Positions 1 to 12,147 of a stretch of 39,457 bases of DNA are shown here, in pieces; position 1 is the first letter of the stretch; the number at the start of each line of letters is the position of its first letter. Source of the DNA: Candidatus Komeilibacteria bacterium. GTDB taxonomy: Bacteria; Patescibacteriota; Patescibacteriia; UBA1558. The DNA is taken from contig JBLYPX010000001.1 in NCBI GenBank assembly GCA_048538235.1, positions 745,554-785,010 of the forward strand, read 5' to 3'. The notes below the pieces were generated by a model, which saw only the letters and a list, made by a program, of their open reading frames with translations, did no database searches and was not told the origin of the DNA. A program made the position numbers and the translations under genes.

Positions 1-72
1 ACCGCGCTTGTTTATATTTACAAGACTAACAGCAGTTTCATCACAACTTGATTCTATTCCTAAAATTCTCAT
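1..72 (-). CDS. tsaD: tRNA t6A modification protein TsaD, N-terminal fragment (runs off the window edge)
   Basis: Hand translation from ATG at 72: MRILGIESSCDETAVSLVNINKRG, matching the TsaD/Kae1 N-terminal ILGIE[TS]SCDETA motif. Not in the ORF track. Confidence 0.9.
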   Translation of the reverse strand, partial: MRILGIESSCDETAVSLVNINKRG

Positions 73-126
73 AGTGTTCATATTATAGCTTATGATTGTC
101 CTATAGTTCAACCTATATGTCAAGAA

Positions 127-154
127 AACACCCCTACATTTAAGTAGGGGTGTT
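127..154 (-). terminator. Intrinsic terminator after the MFS gene
   Basis: 11-bp stem AACACCCCTAC/GTAGGGGTGTT with a 6-nt loop, followed by a T-run on the minus strand. Confidence 0.8.
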
Positions 155-157
155 AAT

Positions 158-1357
158 TTAGAGTCTTGTTACCTTCTTGCCATTAAAAAACATAACAGCA
201 GGCATTGCTAGGATGATAATTAGCCCAGAGATAAGCCAAGCAGTATCTATGCTGTAATACTTAGCAATAAGTCCAGACATGACAAGCCCTATACCAGACG
301 CACCAGTTGCTATCATATGCACAAATGAATCTACTGTAGCTCTTGTTTTTGATGGAATACTTTCCTGAATGGTTGTATCTACATATGGTCTAATAAGTCC
401 ACGCATCATCTCGTGTCCCATAAAACCTAATACCAAGATACTTAAAGTATTAGACATGGCAGCTACAACCATAAACAGACCAACCACCAAACCAATTACC
501 ACAAAGCCAATTTTCTGTCTTGGAAACTTCTTAGTAAAAAAGCGAACAAGTTCATTACCAATCATAGCTGTTAACACCACAAACACCCATACATATCCTA
601 AATATTCTGTATTAGATAAATATTCAGAAAACTGAGGCTGCCAATACATGTTAAAAGCTGGGAAACCTAAATTAAAAACAGTAGTAGCAGTTATAACCAT
701 AAAGACTATCTTGTGTTTAAGTCCATAACTAACACTAGTTGTAGCAATCTCTTTTAAATTCCACCACACTTTTACTTCTGACAATTTCTTAGGTGTGAAA
801 TAATCTTCGCGAACTATAACTGCTGCTAAGAAAGCCAAACCAAGAAATCCAATACCAGTAATAATCATAGGCAGAGATAAACTCACCGCTCCAATGTAAG
901 CACCAATAAGTCCACCAAGTAATGTAGCAACATTGCGACACCTACCTTCTAAACGAAACACATCCGAAAGTTCTCCTGGCCAACTATGATACTGCAAAGA
1001 ATCAACCAGCCAAGCACGAAAAGCACCAGAGGTTAATGTAACAGCCAAAGCAATTGTAATCTCAGCTATAACAAAACCTACAAAGTTGTCTGTAATACCA
1101 TACCAAATAAATCCTAAAGCCATTACAACGCTAGATGATACAAAAGACACTTTTCTACCAAAAAGATCTGCAATGGCACCAGTTGGTATTTCTAATATAA
1201 AAACAGATACCATAAATGCCACATTGACTAAATTAACTTGTAAAAGATCTAAGCCATTACTTAACAAATATGTTACATAAATGGCTGTGTGCAATCCCAT
1301 GAATAAATGGTCAATTGATGTTAACCACATGTACTGCCTAATAATTTTCTTCCCCAT
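158..1357 (-). CDS. MFS transporter
   Basis: 399 aa, about 12 hydrophobic segments, MFS motif A-like GAIADLFGRK; GGGAG SD upstream. Confidence 0.9.
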   Translation of the reverse strand: MGKKIIRQYMWLTSIDHLFMGLHTAIYVTYLLSNGLDLLQVNLVNVAFMVSVFILEIPTGAIADLFGRKVSFVSSSVVMALGFIWYGITDNFVGFVIAEITIALAVTLTSGAFRAWLVDSLQYHSWPGELSDVFRLEGRCRNVATLLGGLIGAYIGAVSLSLPMIITGIGFLGLAFLAAVIVREDYFTPKKLSEVKVWWNLKEIATTSVSYGLKHKIVFMVITATTVFNLGFPAFNMYWQPQFSEYLSNTEYLGYVWVFVVLTAMIGNELVRFFTKKFPRQKIGFVVIGLVVGLFMVVAAMSNTLSILVLGFMGHEMMRGLIRPYVDTTIQESIPSKTRATVDSFVHMIATGASGIGLVMSGLIAKYYSIDTAWLISGLIIILAMPAVMFFNGKKVTRL

Positions 1358-1383
1358 TTTTTTATCTCCCTTTTTAAATGTTC

Positions 1384-1413
1384 AAAAAACCCCTGGGGCA
1401 CAAGTCCCAGGGG
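1384..1413 (-). terminator. Terminator/attenuator hairpin in the MFS leader
   Basis: CCCCTGGG/CCCAGGGG 8-bp GC stem followed by U6 on the minus strand, about 27 nt upstream of the MFS ATG. Confidence 0.7.
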
Positions 1414-1438
1414 AATACTTTCGAGCAATTTAATTCTG

Positions 1439-1612
1439 TTAATTAGAGTTTAATTGCAGTCCATCATAATCACTTACAACAAAGTAATCCGCCTGGGCCT
1501 GACTATTATCAATAGTCGGTGCACAAACATAGCCAACTTTTCTTAAAAGTGACTTTGCCTTTGCATAAACGCTCATAAACTGACTATTCTGTTGTGAGTT
1601 TTGATTATTCAT
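1439..1612 (-). CDS. 57-aa small ORF, candidate leader peptide
   Basis: Hand translation MNNQNSQQNSQFMSVYAKAKSLLRKVGYVCAPTIDNSQAQADYFVVSDYDGLQLNSN*; AGGAGG lies 17 nt upstream of the ATG (long spacing). Confidence 0.5.
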   Translation of the reverse strand: MNNQNSQQNSQFMSVYAKAKSLLRKVGYVCAPTIDNSQAQADYFVVSDYDGLQLNSN

Positions 1613-1700
1613 AGTTGTGTTAAATTGTCCCTCCTATAATATTAGACGAATAAAATTGGCAAATGTTACAGCTTAAATTAGGTTATACACAGGAGGATTG

Positions 1701-1730
1701 TTGACAGGTGAACGAACGTTCACTTATAAT
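1701..1730 (+). promoter_or_regulatory. Sigma70 promoter with a LexA-type operator between -35 and -10
   Basis: TTGACA(1701)-18 nt-TATAAT(1725); the spacer holds the palindrome GTGAAC-GAAC-GTTCAC (1708-1723), i.e. GAAC-N4-GTTC. Confidence 0.85.
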
Positions 1731-1736
1731 ATATTC

Positions 1737-2315
1737 ATGGATAAAAGACTAGAACAAGCAACAGCCAAATTAAGGAAGTATTGGCAGAAGAATAGACGCC
1801 TTCCCTCTTTCTCAGAAATGGCTAGTATCTTTGGTTATGCTTCTAAAAATGCTGTTAGTAAATTAGTCGTCAAATTAAAAGATGCTGGCATTGTTGATCA
1901 AGATGAAAACGGTCATTTAATACCTGGGGAGATTTTAACTTCCCTACCACTACTAGGTAATGTACAGGCTGGCTTTCCTTCACCAGCAGAAGAAGAACTG
2001 GTTGATACTCTTACCCTAGATAGGTATTTAATAAATAATCCTGATAGCAGTTTTTTAATTGAGGTGTCTGGTGACTCAATGATTGATGCTGGTATTCAAC
2101 CAAAAGATTTAGTAATTGTAGATAGAGCTTTAACACCAAAAAATAATGATATTGTTTTGGCTAAGATAGATAATGACTGGACACTAAAATATTTATACAA
2201 AAAAGGACAAAGAGTTTATCTGCAAGCTGCTAATGAAAATTATCCGAATCTAGTACCAAATGAAGAACTTGAGATAGCTGGAGTAATAGTATCTTCAATT
2301 AGAAAATATAAATAA
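1737..2315 (+). CDS. lexA: LexA-family repressor: winged HTH plus UmuD-like S24 peptidase domain
   Basis: N-terminal PSFSEMASIFGYASKNAV HTH, Ala-Gly cleavage site in QAGFPSPA, catalytic Ser (GDSM) and Lys (TLKYL). Start moved from 1698 to ATG 1737 because the promoter lies inside the longer ORF. Confidence 0.85.
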   Translation: MDKRLEQATAKLRKYWQKNRRLPSFSEMASIFGYASKNAVSKLVVKLKDAGIVDQDENGHLIPGEILTSLPLLGNVQAGFPSPAEEELVDTLTLDRYLINNPDSSFLIEVSGDSMIDAGIQPKDLVIVDRALTPKNNDIVLAKIDNDWTLKYLYKKGQRVYLQAANENYPNLVPNEELEIAGVIVSSIRKYK

Positions 2316-2334
2316 AAAATTAAAATATAAAAAG

Positions 2335-3654
2335 ATGGAGTATAAAAAGGGAAATAGTTTTCTTATTAAATCATGGCCACGTGCTTTTCTGCACATTGAT
2401 GCAGATGCTTTTTTCGCCTCTTGCGAACAAGCCCTTAATCCAAACCTAAAAGGTTTGCCTGTTATTACAGGGGCAGAGAGGGGTATTGTGTCTGCTGCGA
2501 GTTATGAAGCAAAAGATTTAGGAATTGGCAGAGGCATTCCTTTGTGGGAAGTTAGAAAGATTTGTCCTGACGCTATTATCCTACCTAGCGATTATGAAAG
2601 CTACTCTTTAATATCTACACGTATGTTCGACATTATGCGTCGCTTTGTACCAGTGGTTGAAGAATATTCTATTGATGAAGGATTTGCAGATCTTACTGGT
2701 ATGCGTCGTCCTTTGCACTGCTCATACCATGAAATTGGCAGACGCATAAAGGAACAAATTGAGGTTGAGCTTGGTATTACTGTTTCTGTTGGTATAGCTC
2801 CAACTAAAAGCCTTGCTAAAATTGCTGCTAATATACAAAAGCCCTCTGGTTTAACAGTTGTGCCCGGAAGCTTAATAGAAAATCTCTTAGAAAAAACTCC
2901 TATCAATAAAGTTTGGGGCTTTGGAGAAAGTACAACCAGTTATTTAAAAAGGTTTGGCATTAAAACAGCTTATGACTTCACGCTTAAAAGTAAATACTGG
3001 GTTAAACAACATTTAAATAAGACTGGATTAGAAATATGGAACGAGTTAAGAGGACAAGCAGTATATGATATAGCTGATGAGAAGCACGAAAAGTATAAAT
3101 CTATTAGCAAGACTAAAACTTTTACACCGCCCTCTACTCAAAGAAACTATTTACTTGGACAAATGATACGCAATTTAGAATCTGCTTGTATAAAAGCCAG
3201 AAGACATAATTTGGTAAGCGATAGATTAGTAATATATTTACGTCAACAAAATTTTCAAAGCTCGGGTATTGAAATAAAACTAGATAGAGCTAGCAACTCT
3301 TCCCTGCTTATGACAAGTTCTTTAAAAAAAGCTTTTAAACAAATATGGGCACCCGGCACACCTTACAGATCAACTGGAGTGGTTCTAAGTAATTTAAAAG
3401 CAGATAATAAAATACAGGAATCATTATTTACAGATAAAGTTAAAGTTATAAAAATGGAACAACTAACAAATGTAATAGATATTATTAATAATAAATTTGG
3501 TAAACACACACTACACCAAGCGTCCAGTTTATCAGTAAATTTTACCAGTCGTGGTAATAGAGAAGCAAAGAGCAGTAAATGGCAAAACCTTCTTAAAGGA
3601 GAAAACTACAGACAGCATTTATACATTCCACGCTGGTCCATTAAAGCGAATTAA
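2335..3654 (+). CDS. dinB: Y-family DNA polymerase (DinB/UmuC)
   Basis: HIDADAFFAS, SYEAK and YSIDE motifs, HhH region and little-finger domain. Confidence 0.9.
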   Translation: MEYKKGNSFLIKSWPRAFLHIDADAFFASCEQALNPNLKGLPVITGAERGIVSAASYEAKDLGIGRGIPLWEVRKICPDAIILPSDYESYSLISTRMFDIMRRFVPVVEEYSIDEGFADLTGMRRPLHCSYHEIGRRIKEQIEVELGITVSVGIAPTKSLAKIAANIQKPSGLTVVPGSLIENLLEKTPINKVWGFGESTTSYLKRFGIKTAYDFTLKSKYWVKQHLNKTGLEIWNELRGQAVYDIADEKHEKYKSISKTKTFTPPSTQRNYLLGQMIRNLESACIKARRHNLVSDRLVIYLRQQNFQSSGIEIKLDRASNSSLLMTSSLKKAFKQIWAPGTPYRSTGVVLSNLKADNKIQESLFTDKVKVIKMEQLTNVIDIINNKFGKHTLHQASSLSVNFTSRGNREAKSSKWQNLLKGENYRQHLYIPRWSIKAN

Positions 3655-3800
3655 TTAGCAGTATATAGCTAAAGGTTTTATATGATAGCACGGCCCTCGC
3701 TTATCATTAAAAACACTAAGCTGAAACCCTGTTTAAAAGTCTGATTTGACTAAGTTTACTTAGTTAAATAAATTAGACAAAACTGCAAGTTAATATATAT

Positions 3801-3834
3801 ACAAAACACCCATCATTTCTGATGGGTGTTTTGT
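3801..3834. terminator. Bidirectional terminator between convergent dinB and protease genes
   Basis: 15-bp stem ACAAAACACCCATCA/TGATGGGTGTTTTGT with a 4-nt loop. Confidence 0.85.
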
Positions 3835-3865
3835 GATACAACGCTATACGTGTTACATCAAACAA

Positions 3866-4921
3866 TTAATAACTATTTATATAATCATTAAGCTCGTCTG
3901 TTATAGAATCCTCAAACTCATAAACAAATTGCGCATCAATTATTTCCCCATATTGCTCTTCCTCTTTTTCAATATAAACTGCCGTTGGAACTCCGACATA
4001 GCAACCCCTAGCATCAATAGCTAATCCGCCTGAATTACCAGAGGAAATCTTAGCCGACGTTATTATGTATCCATTAACTGAATATAAACTACTAACCAAC
4101 CCGTTTGTAATTGTTAATGCCCCACCAGTAATATTAGGGAATCCCACCACGAACAAGGAGTCGCCCAACTGAATTGCGTCTTCACACTCCCCACTAGGAT
4201 TGCTGTAATATGGGAACAACCCCTCAATTACTTTATCCGCATAGCCATAAATATTATAATTATCATCAAACATTGGAGACTTTATTGATAGATATGCTAA
4301 ATCATGAACCATATTCTCGTCTCTGTCGATAATTGGCACAGCCCAATAAGCCTCCTCAACTAAGCCAGTACCAGAATTTACAAAACCAACAGCACAACCG
4401 TCAACACCTTCAACTATATGCAAATTTGTTAATATATACCCACTAGGGTCTGTATTAGTGCCCGAACCAATATAAAAGTAATCATCATCCTCACACACCA
4501 ACTTAACAACAGAACTAATTATGTTCGTCTGATTCTTGAACTGATATCTGTTTTCGTCAAAATCAATTTCAGGACTCTCTAGCTCATAATATTCAACATA
4601 AGAATACCATTCTTTCCAGCCCATATCTTCGTCATCAAAGACATCTGAGTTTGTAAAATATCCCAGCGGCTCTAAACTAGGTTCCAACTCACTCAAAATA
4701 TCGTACCCCTCACTATCTTCATATAATGAATCAAAATCTTCAAAATAATAAAACACTGCAACCAGAGCTGCAACAACAAACAAAACAAATACAATCAACA
4801 CTTTTTTTAGAATTTTAAACCTACTTTGTCTTCTAACAAGTCCTGATTTGGTTGATTTCCCACAGTGTATACAAAAAGAAATCGCCCCCTCTATTTCCTT
4901 TCCACAATTTTGACAAAACAT
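3866..4921 (-). CDS. Zinc-ribbon + TM + trypsin-like serine protease
   Basis: CQNC..CIHC at the N-terminus, one TM, catalytic triad motifs TNLH, HDLA, GNSGG. Confidence 0.85.
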   Translation of the reverse strand: MFCQNCGKEIEGAISFCIHCGKSTKSGLVRRQSRFKILKKVLIVFVLFVVAALVAVFYYFEDFDSLYEDSEGYDILSELEPSLEPLGYFTNSDVFDDEDMGWKEWYSYVEYYELESPEIDFDENRYQFKNQTNIISSVVKLVCEDDDYFYIGSGTNTDPSGYILTNLHIVEGVDGCAVGFVNSGTGLVEEAYWAVPIIDRDENMVHDLAYLSIKSPMFDDNYNIYGYADKVIEGLFPYYSNPSGECEDAIQLGDSLFVVGFPNITGGALTITNGLVSSLYSVNGYIITSAKISSGNSGGLAIDARGCYVGVPTAVYIEKEEEQYGEIIDAQFVYEFEDSITDELNDYINSY

Positions 4922-4936
4922 ATAATACTCACTATG

Positions 4937-5530
4937 TTAATTAATAAAAGTTGCCTTTACCCTTTTTGATACTCTCATGTAGGGTATCCATATACAGGCA
5001 CCAACAAACTGTCTGATCAAATCTTCATCTAAACCATCTGTTAACGAGGTAAGCTCTTCTCCCTCAAAATAATTTGGGAAAATAGAGTAAGCAGCTATCG
5101 TGTCAATAATCAAAACAATCAACGAGCCCAACGTCCAAACAATCCACATTATTGGAAATTCTTTCTTTTTACGAAAAAAAATAAATATTAAATAAAAACA
5201 AAAGCCAACAATAAAAACATTTGCAACAAATTCAAAAATCAAATAAATCTTAAAATCAAAATCCAGGAATTGGAATGACTCCCACCAACCAGTAAACAAT
5301 GAATAAAGGATAACATAAATTGGTGTTGCAAATAATCCTATTGCAACTAAATACAACCAACCTCCTATACCCTTATACTCATCATCGATGTTTTGATTTA
5401 AAGGTAGATTATTATCATCATTTAAAGCATCTGATTTTTTTTCACTTTCATCTACTGAAATCCTCTCTCCACAATTTTGACAATACAAAAAATCTTTTTT
5501 TAGCTGTGAACCACATTTTTTACAATACAT
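4937..5530 (-). CDS. Zinc-ribbon + DUF2569-like membrane protein
   Basis: CKKC..CQNC N-terminus; GIGGWL start and WIPY..SKRVKATF end typical of DUF2569; about 4 TMs. Confidence 0.75.
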   Translation of the reverse strand: MYCKKCGSQLKKDFLYCQNCGERISVDESEKKSDALNDDNNLPLNQNIDDEYKGIGGWLYLVAIGLFATPIYVILYSLFTGWWESFQFLDFDFKIYLIFEFVANVFIVGFCFYLIFIFFRKKKEFPIMWIVWTLGSLIVLIIDTIAAYSIFPNYFEGEELTSLTDGLDEDLIRQFVGACIWIPYMRVSKRVKATFIN

Positions 5531-5617
5531 AATGTTTTAAAATAATCTATTTATACACAAAGTATATCAAAAAGCTAATAACAAAAATAACGCTTAATAA
5601 TATTTACTTATATCTGG

Positions 5618-6349
5618 TTAATACAAATCGAACTGACTCGAATCAACATTGCTCGTCTCAGCATTTCCTCCAACAACCGGATATAAAGTGACTTCAAACC
5701 CAGAAAAATAATAATATTCTCGATCCGATGTTGTTTGATAATCGAATGTTTCATCAAAAACTGAATACTGTTGACTACGATTAAAACCTTTACTATCCGA
5801 ATTATAGTCTAAACCTTGAGCAAAAGCTAACCAATACACACCGTCAGATATACCCGTGATAGTATATTCACTTTCGGATTTGATATACACAGTAAACACC
5901 GATACCCCATCAGTAATAAGCTTGGCTACAGCATCTAAACTGGTGCCATTATCTATATACAACGTCCCTCCATCTCCTTGAAAATAATTGTCATTCTTTT
6001 TTAGTATAGTTCCATTGGCAAGAGATGCTGGCAATACAACAGACCCTGTTTCAACGTCACCATCATAATCTTGTTGTGCTGGCAACGGAAGCGGTGCCTT
6101 TACTCCACCACCATAAATTGTATCATCATCTGAAATAATCCAAGAAAAAAACAGTATTCCTACTAGAACAAAAACTATGCGTTTAGATATCAACTTTAGA
6201 TCATATTCTTTTTTCGCACCATAAGATTCCGTTTCAGAGAAACTTTCATTCAAAGCTATTTTCTCAATTAATATCTGGCGACAATTAGGACACACTTCTT
6301 CAGTGAAGTTTATTTTTGCTCTACAAAAGGCGCAAAATTTTGATTTCAT
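5618..6349 (-). CDS. Zinc-ribbon + TM + extracellular domain protein
   Basis: CAFC..CPNC, one TM, beta-rich C-terminal domain. ATG 6349 preferred over the track start at 6367. Confidence 0.7.
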   Translation of the reverse strand: MKSKFCAFCRAKINFTEEVCPNCRQILIEKIALNESFSETESYGAKKEYDLKLISKRIVFVLVGILFFSWIISDDDTIYGGGVKAPLPLPAQQDYDGDVETGSVVLPASLANGTILKKNDNYFQGDGGTLYIDNGTSLDAVAKLITDGVSVFTVYIKSESEYTITGISDGVYWLAFAQGLDYNSDSKGFNRSQQYSVFDETFDYQTTSDREYYYFSGFEVTLYPVVGGNAETSNVDSSQFDLY

Positions 6350-6356
6350 AGATTTG

Positions 6357-6800
6357 TTACTTATCAAATTTACTACTTATACTATCAACAAAAAAACCAA
6401 CAACATATCTCATGTCGTCTTCTTTATACCCTTTATCTTTTAGCACCTGTTCAAGGTCAGTCATTATCTTATTAAGGTTGTTTGCTGGGTCATCATTACA
6501 ATTATTAAAAAAATCTATAACATCGTTATAGATTTTAATAGAAACTTCATTAGATGGTAAATTTGCAACACTAGCCAAAAGTTCATTCATGCTCTTTTCA
6601 TCAAGTTCAAATCCAGCATCACAAACGGGACAGACTAAATAGTATTTCTTGTTCCATTTAGCGACTGGTACGAAATAGAGGCTCGCCTTATTACTTAATT
6701 CTCTCACCTCTGCACCCGCCACATTCATGCAATTACGACAAGTCATTAAACCAACATCTGCAATTTTTTTACTTTTTTTACCCCAACCAAATATCAACAT
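6357..6800 (-). CDS. Zinc-ribbon (zinc_ribbon_15-like) protein
   Basis: MLIFGW..CRNC..LYFVPV..YYLVCPVC pattern. Confidence 0.7.
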   Translation of the reverse strand: MLIFGWGKKSKKIADVGLMTCRNCMNVAGAEVRELSNKASLYFVPVAKWNKKYYLVCPVCDAGFELDEKSMNELLASVANLPSNEVSIKIYNDVIDFFNNCNDDPANNLNKIMTDLEQVLKDKGYKEDDMRYVVGFFVDSISSKFDK

Positions 6801-6804
6801 AAGA

Positions 6805-7047
6805 TTATCTCTTTAATGCTTCTACCTGTTCCTTTTTAATTTGCTTGGATATGCGCCTACATACAGGACAGATCAAGTAATACCTTTTAAAGGAAAGCCA
6901 GGGCTTCTTTGCAAACGGGAAACCAATAGCAGGACCAACTGGCTCAGTACAGACCTCGTGCTCGGAGTCGTTACTACAATTAGAACAAATCATTTTGACC
7001 GTGTTTGTATTCTTAACCGGTGTTGGCGCATAATTTGTAAAATACAT
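6805..7047 (-). CDS. Small zinc-ribbon protein
   Basis: CSNC..YYLICPVC, 80 aa; extended -10 TGtTATAAT 6 nt before the ATG. Confidence 0.7.
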   Translation of the reverse strand: MYFTNYAPTPVKNTNTVKMICSNCSNDSEHEVCTEPVGPAIGFPFAKKPWLSFKRYYLICPVCRRISKQIKKEQVEALKR

Positions 7048-7113
7048 AATGTTATTATAACAACTTATTAGCTTATATTCATTATATCAAAAAACTCCCA
7101 ATAAAGGGAGTAA

Positions 7114-7188
7114 TGGTACCGCCTAGGGGAATCGAACCCCTGTTGCCAGGATGAAAACCTGATGTCCTAACCACTAGACGAAGGCGGC
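7114..7188 (-). tRNA. tRNA-Glu(UUC)
   Basis: Cloverleaf GCCGCCT...AGGCGGT-ACCA, anticodon loop TT-TTC-AT; promoter TTGACT-17-TAGAAT at 7234-7206. Confidence 0.95.
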
Positions 7189-7290
7189 ATGAAAAACTAT
7201 GAAGTATTCTAATACATTTTCATAAATTAGTCAAGGTTGACTCGACTTGAAATAACTGTTAAGACATAGAAGTAACAAATAACATAAATT

Positions 7291-9093
7291 ATGAAAAAAA
7301 TACTTATAATAAGCCTAATATTAATTAGTTTAAGCTTAGTAGGGCTTAAGGCCTCTTGGACAATGCCATCCTCTAATTCTCCTATTAATATTAATGATGG
7401 CTACAATGACCAAATAGAGTTTGCAGCTACCGATCAATATATTGTCTATACGGAATATGGTGATAACACTTTTTCGCTATATCTCTACACTATATTAACT
7501 GGAGAAAAGCAATTATTAGCCGAACAGACAGGAGATAAATTTAGTCCATCAATTGATGGCACAGATATAGTCTGGCAAGCTATTGGTAGTGGTGGAAAGA
7601 AATATATTAATCACTACAATATACTTACTGAAGAAAGTGGTGCATATTTTATGCCAACTACTAGCTATCATGATACACATCCATATATTCAAGGAAATAA
7701 AATTTCATTCATTCGTTGGAACTTAAACGCTGGCACATCTTATGTAATGGTTTATGATATTGCTTCTGCTTCACTTTCTACGATAGATGGTGTTAGTCAC
7801 GGATCACAAACAAACCAAAGACATTATAGCAATACAGTTGTTTGGCAAGACAAAAGAAATGACATCGATGAAATATTTATTAAACAAACAATAGACGAAG
7901 AAGAAGTTGTTTCTAATTTATCCAATAATGGATTAAATCATTACTTTCCAAAAATATCTGATAATAATGTTATCTGGGATACAAAAAATTCTGTTTACGT
8001 AAAAAATCTAGAAGACCAATCATTACAAATTATTGGTAGCAAATCTTACGCAAACTTCTACTCTTCAATAGATGGCAATAATGTTGTTTACCAATCACAA
8101 CGTAATGGTTCTTACAATATTTATTTGTACAATCTAAAAACTAAGTCTGAAATAAGGTTAACAAATAGTTACCAGAATGATGAATCTCCTTCAATCAGAG
8201 GAAATATTGTTACTTGGCGCAGACAGAACGATAATGGTCGTTATGATGTTCACTATACTAATATAAAACCGGCTTTAGAAAAGATATATACAGAATTGAG
8301 CTTTAGTCCAATTACAACAACTGATGTACTAATTACTTGGCCAGAATATGATGATGGCAATTATGTAAATGCTACACTTTATCGCTCAAACACTTATACA
8401 GATAAAGGAATGTTAATTGGAGATCATTTAACAAATTATACATATACAGACACAAACCTAATCCCTGGCAATAACTATTATTACACTCTAACTTTAACAG
8501 ATAAGAATGGTAATGAATCAAACAACTCTGAACAGTTTAGATACACAGCTGCCAATAAGAAACTTGTGAAATTGGTCAATAGCCCAACTGTTTATTTAAT
8601 AGATGAAGATAGTTCATACATAATAGCTAGTGAAGAGATGTTCAATGCATATAAATTTAATTGGGCAGATATAATAACCATTACACAAAGAGAATTAGAT
8701 ACTTACCATTATAGTGGCGCTCTAAAATATCCTAGCGGAACTTTAATTAAGGCTAATCACAATTCTGTATATTTAATATATGGAGATATTGCTAGGCCTT
8801 TTGCTAATGAAGAAATATTTATTAGGGCTGGATATAAATGGAATCAGATAAAGCAAGTAACTCAATTAGAATTTAATACTTATGAAATTGGTGAGGAGTT
8901 AACCTTAGATAATTTCATACATCCAGACGATACATTAATTAAATATACATATAATCCTGATGTGTACTTAATAGAAAACAATACCAAGAGATTAATTATA
9001 GATGAATATAACTTTAATAGACATGGTTTTAACTGGTCAGACATCTTAACAATTCCTGTATACTGGGAATATCCTACTGGACCAAATTTATAA
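7291..9093 (+). CDS. Secreted beta-propeller repeat protein with FN3-like domain and three C-terminal ~50-aa repeats
   Basis: Signal peptide; repeats such as DGNNVVYQSQRNGSYNIYLYNL; FN3-like YTDTNLIPGNNYYYTL; three LIK..VYLI...F...GxxW repeats. Confidence 0.75.
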   Translation: MKKILIISLILISLSLVGLKASWTMPSSNSPININDGYNDQIEFAATDQYIVYTEYGDNTFSLYLYTILTGEKQLLAEQTGDKFSPSIDGTDIVWQAIGSGGKKYINHYNILTEESGAYFMPTTSYHDTHPYIQGNKISFIRWNLNAGTSYVMVYDIASASLSTIDGVSHGSQTNQRHYSNTVVWQDKRNDIDEIFIKQTIDEEEVVSNLSNNGLNHYFPKISDNNVIWDTKNSVYVKNLEDQSLQIIGSKSYANFYSSIDGNNVVYQSQRNGSYNIYLYNLKTKSEIRLTNSYQNDESPSIRGNIVTWRRQNDNGRYDVHYTNIKPALEKIYTELSFSPITTTDVLITWPEYDDGNYVNATLYRSNTYTDKGMLIGDHLTNYTYTDTNLIPGNNYYYTLTLTDKNGNESNNSEQFRYTAANKKLVKLVNSPTVYLIDEDSSYIIASEEMFNAYKFNWADIITITQRELDTYHYSGALKYPSGTLIKANHNSVYLIYGDIARPFANEEIFIRAGYKWNQIKQVTQLEFNTYEIGEELTLDNFIHPDDTLIKYTYNPDVYLIENNTKRLIIDEYNFNRHGFNWSDILTIPVYWEYPTGPNL

Positions 9094-9145
9094 TTTGGCG
9101 AAAAACAACATTTTGTACTATAATATAGGCACTTAGAATTAAAAT

Positions 9146-9598
9146 GTGCCTATGTTTAATTTAGGAAAAAGCAAAAAAAATAACGACATTGTCGAGAATG
9201 ACGACTTTTTTAATAAAGCTGCAGCTCAAACAGACGATAAATGGATCAATGAAGAAGATTATGAAGGTCAATTATCTGTTGATGTTTACGAAGATGGAGA
9301 TAATATTGTAATTAAATCTACAATCGCTGGCATTAAATCTGAAGATGTAGATATCTCTATTAATAATGAGATGATTACAATAAAAGGTAGGAGACAGCAA
9401 ACAGAAACCATAAATGAAGATAACTATTATTACCAGGAATGTTATTGGGGTGGTTTTTCTAGATCAATCATACTACCTGTAGAAATACAGCCAGATAAAG
9501 TAGATGCTTCATTAAAAAATGGCGTTCTAAAGATTGTTTTACCTAAAGCAAAGAAGTCTAAATCTGTCTCAGTTAAAGTTAATACCAGAGAAGCATGA
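9146..9598 (+). CDS. Hsp20/alpha-crystallin small heat-shock protein
   Basis: VDVYED..IAGIKSEDVDI..GGFSRSIILP..VDASLKNGVLKIVLPK. Confidence 0.92.
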   Translation: MPMFNLGKSKKNNDIVENDDFFNKAAAQTDDKWINEEDYEGQLSVDVYEDGDNIVIKSTIAGIKSEDVDISINNEMITIKGRRQQTETINEDNYYYQECYWGGFSRSIILPVEIQPDKVDASLKNGVLKIVLPKAKKSKSVSVKVNTREA

Positions 9599-9801
9599 AT
9601 TGGAGATTAATTAAGTTCTTAGACAATAACGCAGTCATTCAAAACGAAGATAATGAACAAATAATAATACCCCATCACCTATTACCAGCAGACTATAATA
9701 TTGGTGACGAGTTTACATTAAATTTCAATAAGGAAAATAACAACCTATCTGGAGATAAAGAAGCTATACAAATAATTAACTCTATTTTACAAACAGAGTA
9801 A
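9595..9801 (+). CDS. Small protein, DUF3006-like
   Basis: 68 aa, translationally coupled on both sides; AVIQ..IIIP..LLP..GD pattern. Confidence 0.55.
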   Translation: MNWRLIKFLDNNAVIQNEDNEQIIIPHHLLPADYNIGDEFTLNFNKENNNLSGDKEAIQIINSILQTE

Positions 9802-11633
9802 TGCTAAATAAAAAAACGAATGCAAATAGTTTTATGAGGTGGTTACTTATTATAGTAACCGCTTCTTTAGTTGTCCTCACTCTTATCCTAGCAGTAGGAC
9901 TTGGTTTGCATTATATATATAAGAATAAAATAATAGTTGGTGTTTATGCAGCCGAGCAAAACTTAAGTGGGAAAACAATAGATGAAGCTAAAGAAATATT
10001 AAGATCTTCTGTAGATAATTTTAAACAGTCTGGCCTTCATTATAGATATAATGATCATGCTGTAGATTTGCAAACAGATGTTACTTCCGCAGATTTAGAT
10101 AATGTGTACAGCCTAATAAGCTTTTTTCCCGATGAAACAATAGATAAATTATGGTTAATAGGTCATGAACAAGGTTATTTAAAAAACTACTGGCAGCAAA
10201 TAAGACATTTAATTATTCCCAAGCATTACGCAATAGTAATTGAAGCTAATAGCGATAGATTAGAAGAGTCTTTAAAAGACAACTTTTCACAATTTGAAAC
10301 CATCACCTCTTCTGCTCTACCGATTATAAACAGCAATGAAGATATTGAAATTACTGCTCATAAACTTGGTTTGAATTTTATATATGAAAATGTAATTGAG
10401 CAGACTATATACAATTCATCAAGATTAGATAATAGTACAATTGAGCTACAAAGGGAGATATTTTTTCCTACTGTTACCAGTAATGAAATAACTGACGATC
10501 AAGTAAATAGCCTTAAAGATTTTCTTAATGAAAATAAATATTTAACTTTGACATATAATGACAGAAATTGGAGTATTGATCCAGCTACATACAAACCTTG
10601 GATAATTTTTGATAAAAAAGATCAAAAAATAGTTTTAAGTTTAGATAAAAAACTATTCACTGAATACTTAGAAAGTAATGTAGCTAATATAATAGATCAG
10701 GAACCACAAGATGCTAAGTTCGACATTCAAAACGGTAGGGTGGTTGAATTCCAAAATAGTAGAGATGGTAGAGAACTTAATACAGAAGGAACCATTGAGC
10801 TAGTTAATACCAGCTTCTTTAACTCTGAAGACTCTACTTTCGGTTTAGTAGTGATCGAACAAAAAGCAAAACTTGCTGTTGGCGACACCAATGACATGGG
10901 AATAGTAGAAAAGATTGGTGAGGGTAGATCAAACTTTGCTGGTAGTCCAAATAATCGTGTACACAATATTCGAACAGGTGCAGAAGCTATTAATGGTTTA
11001 ATTGTAAAACCTGGGGAAACTTTCTCTTTAATAACAGCGCTTGGTCCAATTGATGGAGATCATGGCTATCTTCAAGAACTAGTTATTAAAGGAGACAAAA
11101 CTGTTCCAGAGTATGGTGGTGGTTTATGCCAAATAGGGACAACAACTTTTAGAGCAGCCTATGGTTCTGGCTTACCTATTGTTGAAAGAAGAAATCATTC
11201 ATACAGAGTATCTTACTATGAACCAGCTGGGACAGATGCTACTATTTATTCTCCAAAACCAGATATGCGCTGGCTAAACGATACAGATAGTAATATTCTT
11301 ATCCAAACAAGAATGGAAGGGACTGAATTAATTTTCGAATACTGGGGAACAAGTGATGGGAGAATAGCAACCGCAACTGAACCAAGAATATATAATATAG
11401 TTAGACCACCGGAAACAAAATATATTGAAACAACAGAATTAAAGCCTGGTGAAAAAAAATGTACAGAACGTGCACACAATGGTGCAGACGCTGAGTTTAC
11501 CTATACCGTAGAATATCCAGATGGTGAAATCAAAGAGGAAACCTTTACAAGTCACTATGTTGCCTGGCCAGAGGTCTGCTTAATTGGTGTTGATCCAGAA
11601 GAAGTTGTAGAAGAAAAAATAATTGAAGAATAA
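9801..11633 (+). CDS. VanW-family protein with peptidoglycan-binding domains
   Basis: N-terminal TM; VanW motifs NRVHNI, GGGLCQIGTT, VERRNHS, GTDATIY. Confidence 0.9.
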   Translation: MLNKKTNANSFMRWLLIIVTASLVVLTLILAVGLGLHYIYKNKIIVGVYAAEQNLSGKTIDEAKEILRSSVDNFKQSGLHYRYNDHAVDLQTDVTSADLDNVYSLISFFPDETIDKLWLIGHEQGYLKNYWQQIRHLIIPKHYAIVIEANSDRLEESLKDNFSQFETITSSALPIINSNEDIEITAHKLGLNFIYENVIEQTIYNSSRLDNSTIELQREIFFPTVTSNEITDDQVNSLKDFLNENKYLTLTYNDRNWSIDPATYKPWIIFDKKDQKIVLSLDKKLFTEYLESNVANIIDQEPQDAKFDIQNGRVVEFQNSRDGRELNTEGTIELVNTSFFNSEDSTFGLVVIEQKAKLAVGDTNDMGIVEKIGEGRSNFAGSPNNRVHNIRTGAEAINGLIVKPGETFSLITALGPIDGDHGYLQELVIKGDKTVPEYGGGLCQIGTTTFRAAYGSGLPIVERRNHSYRVSYYEPAGTDATIYSPKPDMRWLNDTDSNILIQTRMEGTELIFEYWGTSDGRIATATEPRIYNIVRPPETKYIETTELKPGEKKCTERAHNGADAEFTYTVEYPDGEIKEETFTSHYVAWPEVCLIGVDPEEVVEEKIIEE

Positions 11634-11758
11634 AAAAATACCCATTGAAGTGCAGACAAGAAAATCAGATTTGGAAGCAATTGAGCAAAAAGCCTAATTA
11701 GATCCAAGTTTGATCCCCATGCTTGTCGTGCCTGCACTTCAACAGGTACTTTAAGTAA
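11632..11758 (-). ncRNA. Candidate rod-shaped structured ncRNA of unknown family
   Basis: Own promoter TTGACA(11793-11788)-17-TAAGCT(11770-11765); 17-bp closing stem 11639-11655/11732-11748 plus inner stems; ends in U7. Confidence 0.55.
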
Positions 11759-11855
11759 TATAGGAGCTTAACACAGATATAATCTTTTGTCAAGACCTAT
11801 TATCAACAAGTGCTTAATAATTAGCTAATATTAGTCAAATACTAAGTATCTATTC

Positions 11856-11884
11856 TTGACAGAATATTAAAAATAGCATATACT
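11856..11884 (+). promoter_or_regulatory. rpmF operon promoter
   Basis: TTGACA-17-TATACT. Confidence 0.8.
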
Positions 11885-11918
11885 GTAAAAGCTTTTTTAG
11901 TAATATTAATAAATATAT

Positions 11919-12119
11919 ATGAGTGTACCGAAGAAACGAAGAACTAGCGGGTCAAAAGGTAAAAGAAGATCGCACTATAATAGAGCAGCTGTAAATTCAC
12001 AAGCTTGCCCTAAGTGTGGTGCTGCTAAACTACCTCACAGAGCCTGTGGTAAATGTGGCAACTACAAAGATAAAGAAGTTGTTAAAATAAAGTCTTCATT
12101 AGATAAAAAGAAGAAATAG
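11919..12119 (+). CDS. rpmF: 50S ribosomal protein L32
   Basis: [24 protein letters not shown]. Confidence 0.95.
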
Positions 12120-12147
12120 TTTTTCTTCTTTTTTATTAGTTAAAATT

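Follow-up and report, generated by a model that had tools for sequence, protein, structure and literature searches.

A mobile five-gene cassette of zinc-ribbon proteins with a putative membrane-tethered protease in Komeilibacteria, and its relatives among the Patescibacteria

Introduction

Operons that encode several ribbon-bearing membrane proteins have been noted among the systems linked to the phage shock protein (PSP) response, e.g., ydjFGH(L) in B. subtilis, and SHOCT-like helices were proposed to anchor proteins of PSP-linked systems at the inner leaflet (PMC11237479). Here, we describe a cassette of five genes, G1 to G5, located in a stretch of 39,457 nucleotides (hereafter the window) from a Candidatus Komeilibacteria bacterium (GCA_048538235.1, contig JBLYPX010000001.1, positions 745,554 to 785,010 of the forward strand). 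The PSP-linked ribbon/SHOCT concept is the nearest one described. Like ydjFGH(L), the cassette apparently unites in one operon several proteins that join a cytoplasmic four-cysteine (C4) ribbon, a transmembrane (TM) helix and varied further domains. In contrast, neither the five proteins nor the flanking genes yield PspA/Snf7, band-7 or TPM matches. Also, the cassette centres on a predicted outward-facing S1 protease, a new exodomain and Zn_ribbon_15, and its distribution is patchy, mobile and mainly confined to Patescibacteria. We consider it very probable that G1 to G5 form a genuine unit, both conserved and mobile, and tentatively read this unit as a mobile envelope module built on a tethered extracytoplasmic protease.

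Several other systems share single traits with the cassette. DegS/RseA and HtrA resemble it in that a membrane-tethered extracytoplasmic protease of trypsin fold with an intact triad stands beside a single-pass protein with a cytoplasmic zinc module and an ectodomain. Here, however, PDZ domain, sigma factor and site-2 protease are missing, and the anchor of G5 is an N-terminal C4 ribbon. The zinc-binding anti-sigma (ZAS) module does not fit either, as the ribbons are of C4 type and no gene for a sigma factor or DNA-binding protein was found in 3836-7113 or its flanks. TcaA-like PF13240-type proteins of Gram-positive bacteria follow the same plan of head, anchor and ectodomain as G3, G4 and G5, but only the ribbon region matches (NF053815, 12-16.5 bits vs a cut-off of 550) and the ectodomains are unrelated. 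We know of no conserved protease cluster with TcaA-like members. The reverse transcriptase (RT)-protease of retron type XI likewise has a trypsin-like domain and a mobile accessory context, and reverse transcriptases lie near four clusters related to ours; however, the window holds neither a reverse transcriptase nor a non-coding RNA, and G5 is predicted to be membrane-tethered and outward-facing. Finally, tRNA-linked genomic islets are similar as accessory blocks located exactly at a tRNA 3' end and absent in a congener. The cassette differs from them by its small size of only 3.28 kb, its genome-like base composition and the lack of an integrase, a duplicated tRNA end or direct repeats. We would class the cassette as a variant of two kinds of system, tethered envelope proteases and operons of ribbon-headed membrane proteins, to which a sizeable unnamed exodomain family is added.

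Patescibacteria represent a large share of bacterial diversity and live attached to other cells. To our knowledge, no role has been assigned to the majority of their envelope proteins, and few types of defence are known in the lineage. With a size of about 3 kb, the present gene set is compact and self-contained, and it comes and goes in one piece, which makes it a concrete object for experiments. It ties three uncharacterised families (Zn_ribbon_15, DUF2569 and the exodomain) to a protease with an obvious assay. If the products do form a complex, this would give a first functional handle on the common head of zinc ribbon plus TM helix, which is found on thousands of bacterial membrane proteins; if they exclude phages or mobile elements, they would constitute a new type of defence.

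Results

An accessory block between a terminator and tRNA-Glu

Genomes are referred to by three-digit handles and related loci by L numbers. The source genome (G000) is a single contig of 860 kb with 33% G+C, and the closest homologues of the window proteins are found in metagenome-assembled genomes (MAGs) of Patescibacteria. The five co-oriented genes are located on the minus strand at 3866-7047, between tRNA-Glu and the convergent dinB, and each carries a CxxC...CxxC motif. Since the same-genus genome G001 lacks exactly the block 3836-7113, we regard this block as an accessory cassette. In a blastn comparison of window positions 1-12000 with G001, the parts 7-3838 and 7114-12000 align at 76-83% nucleotide identity, collinear on both sides, while nothing aligns between 3838 and 7114. 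In G001, the dinB terminator hairpin is conserved and shares two bases with the CCA end of tRNA-Glu. As both elements abut there, the insertion is placed exactly at the junction of terminator and tRNA-Glu. In G005, from a second genus of the family, tRNA-Glu also adjoins dinB. A second copy of the tRNA-Glu 3' end was not found at the cassette borders within 3 mismatches. The features are as follows.

3836..7113, minus strand: inserted block of about 3.28 kb, holding exactly G1-G5 and their own putative promoter region; absent in G001
7114..7188, minus strand: tRNA-Glu (UUC), called by ARAGORN, directly upstream of G1-G5; its 3' end is the right-hand cassette border
7094..7111, minus strand: short hairpin with a T-run just 3' of tRNA-Glu, from the terminator scan; within the inserted DNA
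7054..7089, minus strand: promoter-like stretch with TGaTATAAT at 7089-7081 and a second TATAAT at 7059-7054, upstream of the G1 ATG at 7047
6805..7047, minus strand: G1, an 80-aa predicted cytoplasmic C4 protein, CSNC-x36-CPVC
6357..6800, minus strand: G2, a 147-aa Zn_ribbon_15 protein, CRNC...CPVC
5618..6349, minus strand: G3, from the ATG of the public gene call P0016; the longest open reading frame (ORF) opens at TTG 6367
4937..5530, minus strand: G4, 197 aa, CKKC-x10-CQNC and a DUF2569 multi-pass membrane domain
3866..4921, minus strand: G5, 351 aa, CQNC-x10-CIHC, a TM helix, an acidic linker and a predicted extracytoplasmic S1 (trypsin-like) serine protease
3801..3834, bidirectional: terminator with a 15-bp stem, from the terminator scan, common to the cassette and the convergent dinB; left-hand border

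From G1 to G5, the intergenic gaps measure 4, 7 (from the G3 ATG at 6349), 87 and 15 nt, and the genes are likely co-transcribed as one operon-like unit. The putative promoter at 7054-7089 is read from the sequence alone; having no -35 match, the stretch was not listed by a consensus scan. The hairpin at 7094-7111, which is missing in G001, probably ends the tRNA-Glu transcript, as a replacement hairpin for this tRNA.

A crude scan of 843 ORFs detected an N-terminal ribbon followed by a TM helix in about five of them genome-wide, G3, G4 and G5 among these. Three of five such ORFs come to lie consecutively with P ~7e-5 in a simulation, and a chance array is thereby excluded. By a measure looser than the Zn_Ribbon_1 count among the neighbours of the exodomain (37 of 148, see below), approximately 26 of the 843 ORFs of G000 carry any short CxxC-x6-20-CxxC motif.

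Domain composition of the five proteins

G2 matches the Pfam family Zn_ribbon_15 (PF17032), whose type comprises two CxxC knuckles flanking a hairpin of approximately 30 aa, over residues 19-68 with 35.7 bits (cut-off 28.9). Its AlphaFold2 (AF2) model, with a pLDDT of 85, consists of a long beta-hairpin zinc ribbon and a subsequent four-helix bundle, and no PDB relative was found by fold or sequence search. For G1, PF17032 gives no match at E<=0.1, and the similarity to G2 is that of a weak paralogue (phmmer 4.6e-5 and 7.6e-5; six-frame match 0.009).

G3 consists of a CAFC-x10-CPNC ribbon, one predicted TM helix, a Pro-rich stalk and an exodomain of approximately 150 aa. Its first 35 residues give only weak double-zinc-ribbon (DZR) matches in Pfam, and the exodomain has no match in Pfam, NCBIfam or PHROGs. 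The AF2 model places the TM helix at 51-73, between the ribbon and the stalk, and folds the exodomain as a beta-sandwich with a pLDDT of 80-90. Foldseek against the PDB returned generic sandwiches of CnaB, pilin and pVHL type (best E=0.014) and no specific relative; PDB sequence searches were also empty. The juxtamembrane stalk is conserved as KAPLPxPxQQ. A profile of full-length G3, ribbons included, collects 1,997 representative proteins at E<=1e-10.

G4 covers the complete profile of DUF2569 (PF10754; 100.7 bits, 1.3e-28, profile 1-143/143, cut-off 26.5) and also matches Zn_Ribbon_1 (3.5e-5). The same ribbon-DUF2569 architecture occurs in the clusters L027, L034, L036, L041 and L096. G5 carries a Trypsin_2 domain (PF13365; 51.9 bits vs a cut-off of 27.6, 1.8e-13) with an intact catalytic triad of His (TNLHIV), Asp (HDLAYL) and Ser (GNSGG). 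The triad and four Cys residues are conserved among the G5-type proteases of ribbon-rich loci in a family alignment that also held four proteins from ribbon-free operons, which proved to be non-proteases. As it is tethered by a cytoplasmic ribbon and a single TM helix, the active protease is predicted to face outward. No PDZ domain was detected in Pfam or NCBIfam, and the scores remain far under the HtrA/DegS cut-offs (TIGR02037, 42.8 vs 416.2 bits; TIGR02038, 36.2 vs 422.95). A canonical HtrA is encoded elsewhere in G000, and G5 is therefore an extra protease.

The original prediction had described five co-oriented Cys4 genes downstream of tRNA-Glu, which is what we find, on the minus strand. 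Of its two small zinc_ribbon_15-like proteins, G2 qualifies and G1 does not. Its three ribbon-TM proteins with an exodomain, a DUF2569 domain and a trypsin protease agree with Pfam in the case of G4 and G5, while the G3 exodomain stays unmatched. The idea of one shared ribbon has to be abandoned, as the window holds three kinds: Zn_ribbon_15 with its long insert, the PF13240 type in G4 and G5, and the DZR-like ribbon of G3.

The Zn_ribbon_15 head was also observed on quite different bodies (L112:6422-8131, L082:3403-4935 and L083:7001-7702), which by eye resemble an FtsK-type translocase ATPase, a TM plus FGE-sulfatase-like protein and a TerB-like protein. This suggests the head as a general N-terminal module of membrane-proximal proteins.

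A conserved neighbourhood in Patescibacteria

In a wide search of 5.8 billion proteins, G2 has 14 homologues (45-62% identity) and G3 has 78, with contigs of coinciding length. All five gene types are present, at 50-59% identity to the window, in L025-27, which represent one metagenome lineage, and in L070. L025-27 encode an 80-aa G1 orthologue (59% identity, in the same position), a 146-aa Zn_ribbon_15 protein, a 122-aa two-TM protein, a G3 orthologue, a ribbon-TM-Trypsin_2 protein and a ribbon-DUF2569 protein. There, the cassette stands after pnp-dksA-lspA, which are 40-58% identical to the window copies. Since the latter are located 12-17 kb from the cassette, its position differs between the two lineages.

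For an exodomain census, 22 G3 homologues were aligned and contigs with one genome per species were searched, which gave 30 loci. They stem from Saccharibacteria, Paceibacterota, Campbell-, Kerfeld-, Uhr-, Adler- and Magasanikbacteria, with weaker matches in a few MAGs outside the candidate phyla radiation (CPR). We call a locus ribbon-rich when its exodomain gene lies among other ribbon-headed genes; counting the window and the metagenome places, there are 16 distinct ones. In 13 of these 16, a protease of the G5 subfamily is found at most three genes from the exodomain gene, as judged by protease-domain phmmer matches (3e-24 to 1e-96); G5 orthologues adjoining G3 homologues reach E values of 1e-97 to 1e-120. 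In ten loci, the exodomain gene adjoins a Zn_ribbon_15 gene, usually located directly upstream, and five loci have ribbon-DUF2569. Among 148 neighbours in 15 ribbon-rich loci, Pfam families are led by Zn_Ribbon_1 (37), Trypsin_2 (12), Zn_ribbon_15 (9) and DUF6804 (6), followed by large serine recombinase, RVT_1 and DUF2569 (4 each) and HTH_3 (3). Within the clusters, it is common for genes to follow one another without a gap or with a small overlap, e.g., in L041 and L045. The pairwise distances among exodomains are correlated with those among their adjacent proteases (Mantel r=0.47, reached in 8 of 10,000 permutations), which shows at least co-inheritance.

A second census, seeded with Zn_ribbon_15, used the best 80 metagenome loci, 64 of which had at least two neighbouring genes and were scored. 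Here, the loci are mostly singletons or other contexts, because the head sits on FtsK-type, FGE-sulfatase-like, TerB-like and TM proteins. The tandem pair G1-G2 was found in about ten loci. At least ten further loci encode a protein of about 155 aa with Zn_ribbon_15, a SHOCT-like helix and a C-terminal ribbon, directly followed by a ribbon-TM-protease; ribbon proteins of about 130, 200 and 300 aa often lie upstream of it. The SHOCT-like helix of G2-type proteins in other loci reads NQLLxxGxITxEEY. The window cassette can thus be described as a G1-G2 pair module combined with an exodomain/DUF2569/protease module, in an exact combination found only here and in L025-27/L070. In the more general neighbourhood, as defined here, a Zn_ribbon_15 gene stands together with a G5-subfamily gene for a ribbon-TM-S1 protease and with genes for additional membrane proteins with ribbon heads, often the G3 exodomain among them, all in the same orientation and only a few genes apart. 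It is present in the window, with parallels in L027, L028, L032-L036, L041, L046, L052-L054, L096, L101, L105, L108, L122, L125 and L142. A 432-aa Andersenbacteria protein (P0045), considered as a Rosetta-stone fusion of G2 and G3, was rejected: the part fused to G3 belongs to another family with two TM helices and a C-terminal ribbon, like L030_06.

The distribution within the order is narrow. Searches of 40 same-order genomes with G2-G5 gave no homologue of G2, one of G3 (G039) and three of G4, and G5 matched solely via the protease domain within larger proteins. The G4 homologue of the same genus is solitary and lies among Nudix and HD-domain genes. From these genomes the cluster first looked like a one-off, a view that was overturned by the wider database searches.

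The proposal of a linked unit instead of a chance array is thus borne out by the simulation, the absence of the whole block from G001 and the recurrent neighbourhood. Conservation of the neighbourhood, which had been suggested as a check, was indeed observed: the G2, G3 and G5 types co-occur in many Patescibacteria loci instead of being found singly, and all five types recur in one other lineage. The cluster is not universal, as the same-order genomes and the solitary G4 homologue in its unrelated context make clear. We found no system of this layout described in the literature, in agreement with the original prediction, and the PADLOC check gave no known defence system. The literature also yielded no description of a function for DUF6804, Zn_ribbon_15 or DUF2569.

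A second, ribbon-free context of the exodomain

Seven loci carry the exodomain as a ribbon-free protein of 192 aa within a different operon. Its genes encode an Hsp70-like protein of 837 aa, a protein of 531 aa, Yip1, a TM protein with Cys-rich repeats and a classic AAA+ ATPase, followed by DUF6804, the exodomain protein, Peptidase_S49 and a protein of 394 aa. This operon is conserved and apparently undescribed. It was observed in L040, L042, L043, L044 and L047 (e.g., L042:933-10683), from Saccharibacteria, Paceibacterota and Uhrbacteria. A supposed G5-type protease in this operon was dismissed, the BLAST link being due to C-terminal Cys-rich repeats and not to the protease domain.

Mobile elements and defence genes near related clusters

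Large serine recombinases adjoin the clusters L030, L033, L034, L053, L054, L112, L136, L142 and that of G019, and some of these recombinase-bearing clusters also have XRE regulators and reverse transcriptases. In L030/L031 and G019, the cluster is located directly downstream of an XRE gene. Four reverse transcriptases adjoin clusters (L033:322-1572, L034:10993-12252, L053:3468-4508 and L049:8533-9513); three are UG17/group-II-like and one is retron RT_VI-like (1.9e-20).

Two further loci are worth recording. At L017 (G019:C6:100000-114000), positions 2792-12133, a large serine recombinase abuts tRNA-Ser; next come an XRE gene and a set of four genes for zinc-ribbon membrane proteins. One of the four is DUF805-like and has its ribbon at the C-terminus, and another, of ribbon-DUF2569 type, probably ends in a thioredoxin-like tail; the array is followed by an 800-aa ATPase matching the PADLOC candidate PDC-S06 (1e-29). 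At L028/L029 (Andersenbacteria, GCA_023131785.1), positions 7623-10551, the ribbon/protease cluster is directly followed by genes for an OLD/AriA-like ATPase (PADLOC Old, 8e-50) and for a PIF1/RecD-like helicase. The fusion protein P0045 belongs to the same cluster.

Discussion

We propose that the cassette is a local version of a modular Patescibacteria gene cluster whose products assemble at the membrane. G5 would be the centre of the module, anchored by its N-terminal cytoplasmic zinc ribbon and one TM helix, and G3 may act on the outer face as its partner, substrate or adaptor. G2, duplicated here as G1, would provide inner-face assembly or regulatory pieces, while G4 would be an exchangeable extra, as would the additional ribbon-headed membrane proteins of other genomes. 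The protease-centred module may cut or process surface proteins, with the ribbons and the Zn_ribbon_15 or SHOCT-type proteins as sub-membrane pieces for assembly or anchoring. It would travel between genomes as cargo, and its pay-off is most likely an accessory one, either the exclusion of incoming elements and phages or the remodelling of the cell surface. We propose only tentatively that the protease is the core of a single physical module made up of the products, and see slightly less than an even chance for this; any particular physiological role, the sensing, host contact or defence of the original prediction included, would be an unlikely guess if named on its own.

A wider reading takes the cassette as one configuration of an undescribed, largely Patescibacteria-specific and horizontally mobile envelope machine with a ribbon-head assembly code. 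In such a machine, PF13240-type and Zn_ribbon_15/SHOCT heads would group interchangeable modules (the beta-sandwich exodomain, DUF2569, DUF6804, TPR and Cys-rich repeats) about a serine protease that faces outward, and the whole would serve epibiotic bacteria as a surface exclusion or defence device or as a host-contact device. We consider this speculative and rather doubtful.

Several observations weigh against a joint, mobile machine. The composition differs much between loci, which would also fit a loose co-regulation of independent surface proteins, and genes of the G4 and G2 types are also found alone. The cluster is patchy and absent from the 40 same-order genomes. Since the ribbon-free operon pairs the exodomain with an S49 peptidase, a protease of another fold, the exodomain is not bound to G5-type proteases only. 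Neither an integrase in the window flanks nor flanking repeats mark the cassette borders. PADLOC-DB v2 finds no known defence system among the window proteins, a pattern-based scan of 2.9 million viral contigs in IMG/VR gave no exodomain relative and one Zn_ribbon_15 relative, and PHROGs yields generic ribbon and protease matches only. A search of public sequencing runs found none that contains this stretch. Finally, ribbon identity is 0.451 within a locus vs 0.426 between loci (34 loci, 142 ribbons with CxxC-x10-CxxC spacing), the shared positions being mostly cysteines and glycines. Concerted evolution of the ribbons inside a locus, considered as a possibility, was not seen. This comparison rules out locus-specific ribbon matching, and it neither supports nor contradicts a common partner of the ribbons. 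The common docking tag of the original prediction gains no support from it, nor from the three ribbon types of the window.

Much of this would be expected if there were no joint machine at all, with the ribbon plus TM helix as a generic signal-anchor of type II membrane proteins, genes that pile up by duplication, shuffling and co-regulation, and products that each work alone. Indeed, ribbons of both types occur as a generic head on proteins of many unrelated kinds, including TPR, DUF805, DUF4234, thioredoxin-like, FtsK, FGE-sulfatase-like and TerB-like ones, and variable composition, single G4 and G2 homologues and a ribbon similarity that is no higher inside a locus than across loci all fit. 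We still regard this explanation as rather unlikely. Three non-paralogous families (Zn_ribbon_15, the exodomain and the G5-subfamily protease) recur together, in similar order and abutting, in several groups of Patescibacteria, and a second lineage has kept all five genes at 50-59% identity. The co-varying exodomain and protease distances and the gain or loss of the cassette as a single block also speak for a unit. A defence or exclusion system directed at phages or mobile elements, in which the membrane module blocks entry or the protease kills the infected cell, would travel on integrative elements and sit in variable or defence islands. The accessory indel at a tRNA 3' end is in agreement with this, as are the large serine recombinases and XRE genes beside related clusters and their neighbours, namely the OLD/AriA-like and PDC-S06-like ATPases and the retron-type and UG17-like reverse transcriptases. 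The known RT-protease of retron type XI has a trypsin-like effector, and the PADLOC profile RT-Protease_XI matches the protease domain of G5 (4.6e-6). This match reflects the common protease fold only, however, and the PADLOC matches of the window are limited to that fold, apart from a stray LmuB match (0.0034). Besides three or four reverse transcriptases, PADLOC found no recurrent defence family among the neighbours of 15 related clusters. The window copy itself is flanked by lexA/umuD-like and dinB genes and a tRNA, and thus has no defence neighbours; the viral-contig and PHROGs results offer no help, and an outward-facing protease would be an odd effector of abortive infection. On balance, defence as the specific role is unlikely.

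In trans-membrane proteolytic signalling of the anti-sigma/site-1-protease type, G5 would cleave the G3 ectodomain upon an outside cue, and the remaining ribbon stub would signal inward together with G1/G2. A cytoplasmic zinc module, TM helix and ectodomain beside a DegS-like tethered protease invite this comparison (TIGR02038 matches the protease domain at 3.7e-9), and so do the conserved G3 stalk and the small cytoplasmic partners in the same operon. Yet the cassette lacks a sigma factor, a DNA-binding output and a site-2 protease, its ribbons are C4 and not the HxxxCxxC of ZAS anti-sigma factors, XRE genes occur solely where a recombinase is present, and G5 is devoid of the PDZ sensor of DegS, which leaves this explanation improbable. 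Still harder to sustain is an envelope maintenance or stress module in the manner of PSP-linked operons and HtrA quality control, in which ribbon/SHOCT pieces would hold membrane proteins and the protease together for repair or clearance of damage. Several zinc-ribbon membrane proteins are likewise encoded together in PSP-linked operons, e.g., ydjFGH(L) of B. subtilis (PMC11237479), G2-type proteins elsewhere have a SHOCT-like helix, and the ribbon-free operon encodes Hsp70-like, AAA+ and S49 proteins. However, no PspA, band-7, TPM or Toastrack gene is located in or beside the cassette, the housekeeping HtrA is already present, and a patchy, mobile distribution would be unusual for such a function. 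We consider it very improbable.

Additional observations

In G039, the contigs C41 and C34 (L021 and L019), which probably join, encode upstream of the G3 homologue a membrane protein with an HEWAH zincin motif and a ribbon-TM protein with a receiver-like central region, both labels being read by eye. A ribbon/protease pairing in a housekeeping context was seen in L016 (G027:C30), positions 4250-7114, where a 210-aa ribbon-TM protein is encoded directly upstream of a secreted trypsin-like protease of 740 aa. By eye, the pair sits between apparent alaS and infA plus ribosomal-protein genes.

Beyond tRNA-Glu, the window encodes a secreted protein of 600 aa on the plus strand (7291-9093), with a weak PD40 (beta-propeller repeat) match and a C-terminus that matches phrog_9616 (2.7e-10). 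Its gene lies outside the indel and is kept in G001, and a relative (L028_13) adjoins the Andersenbacteria cluster.

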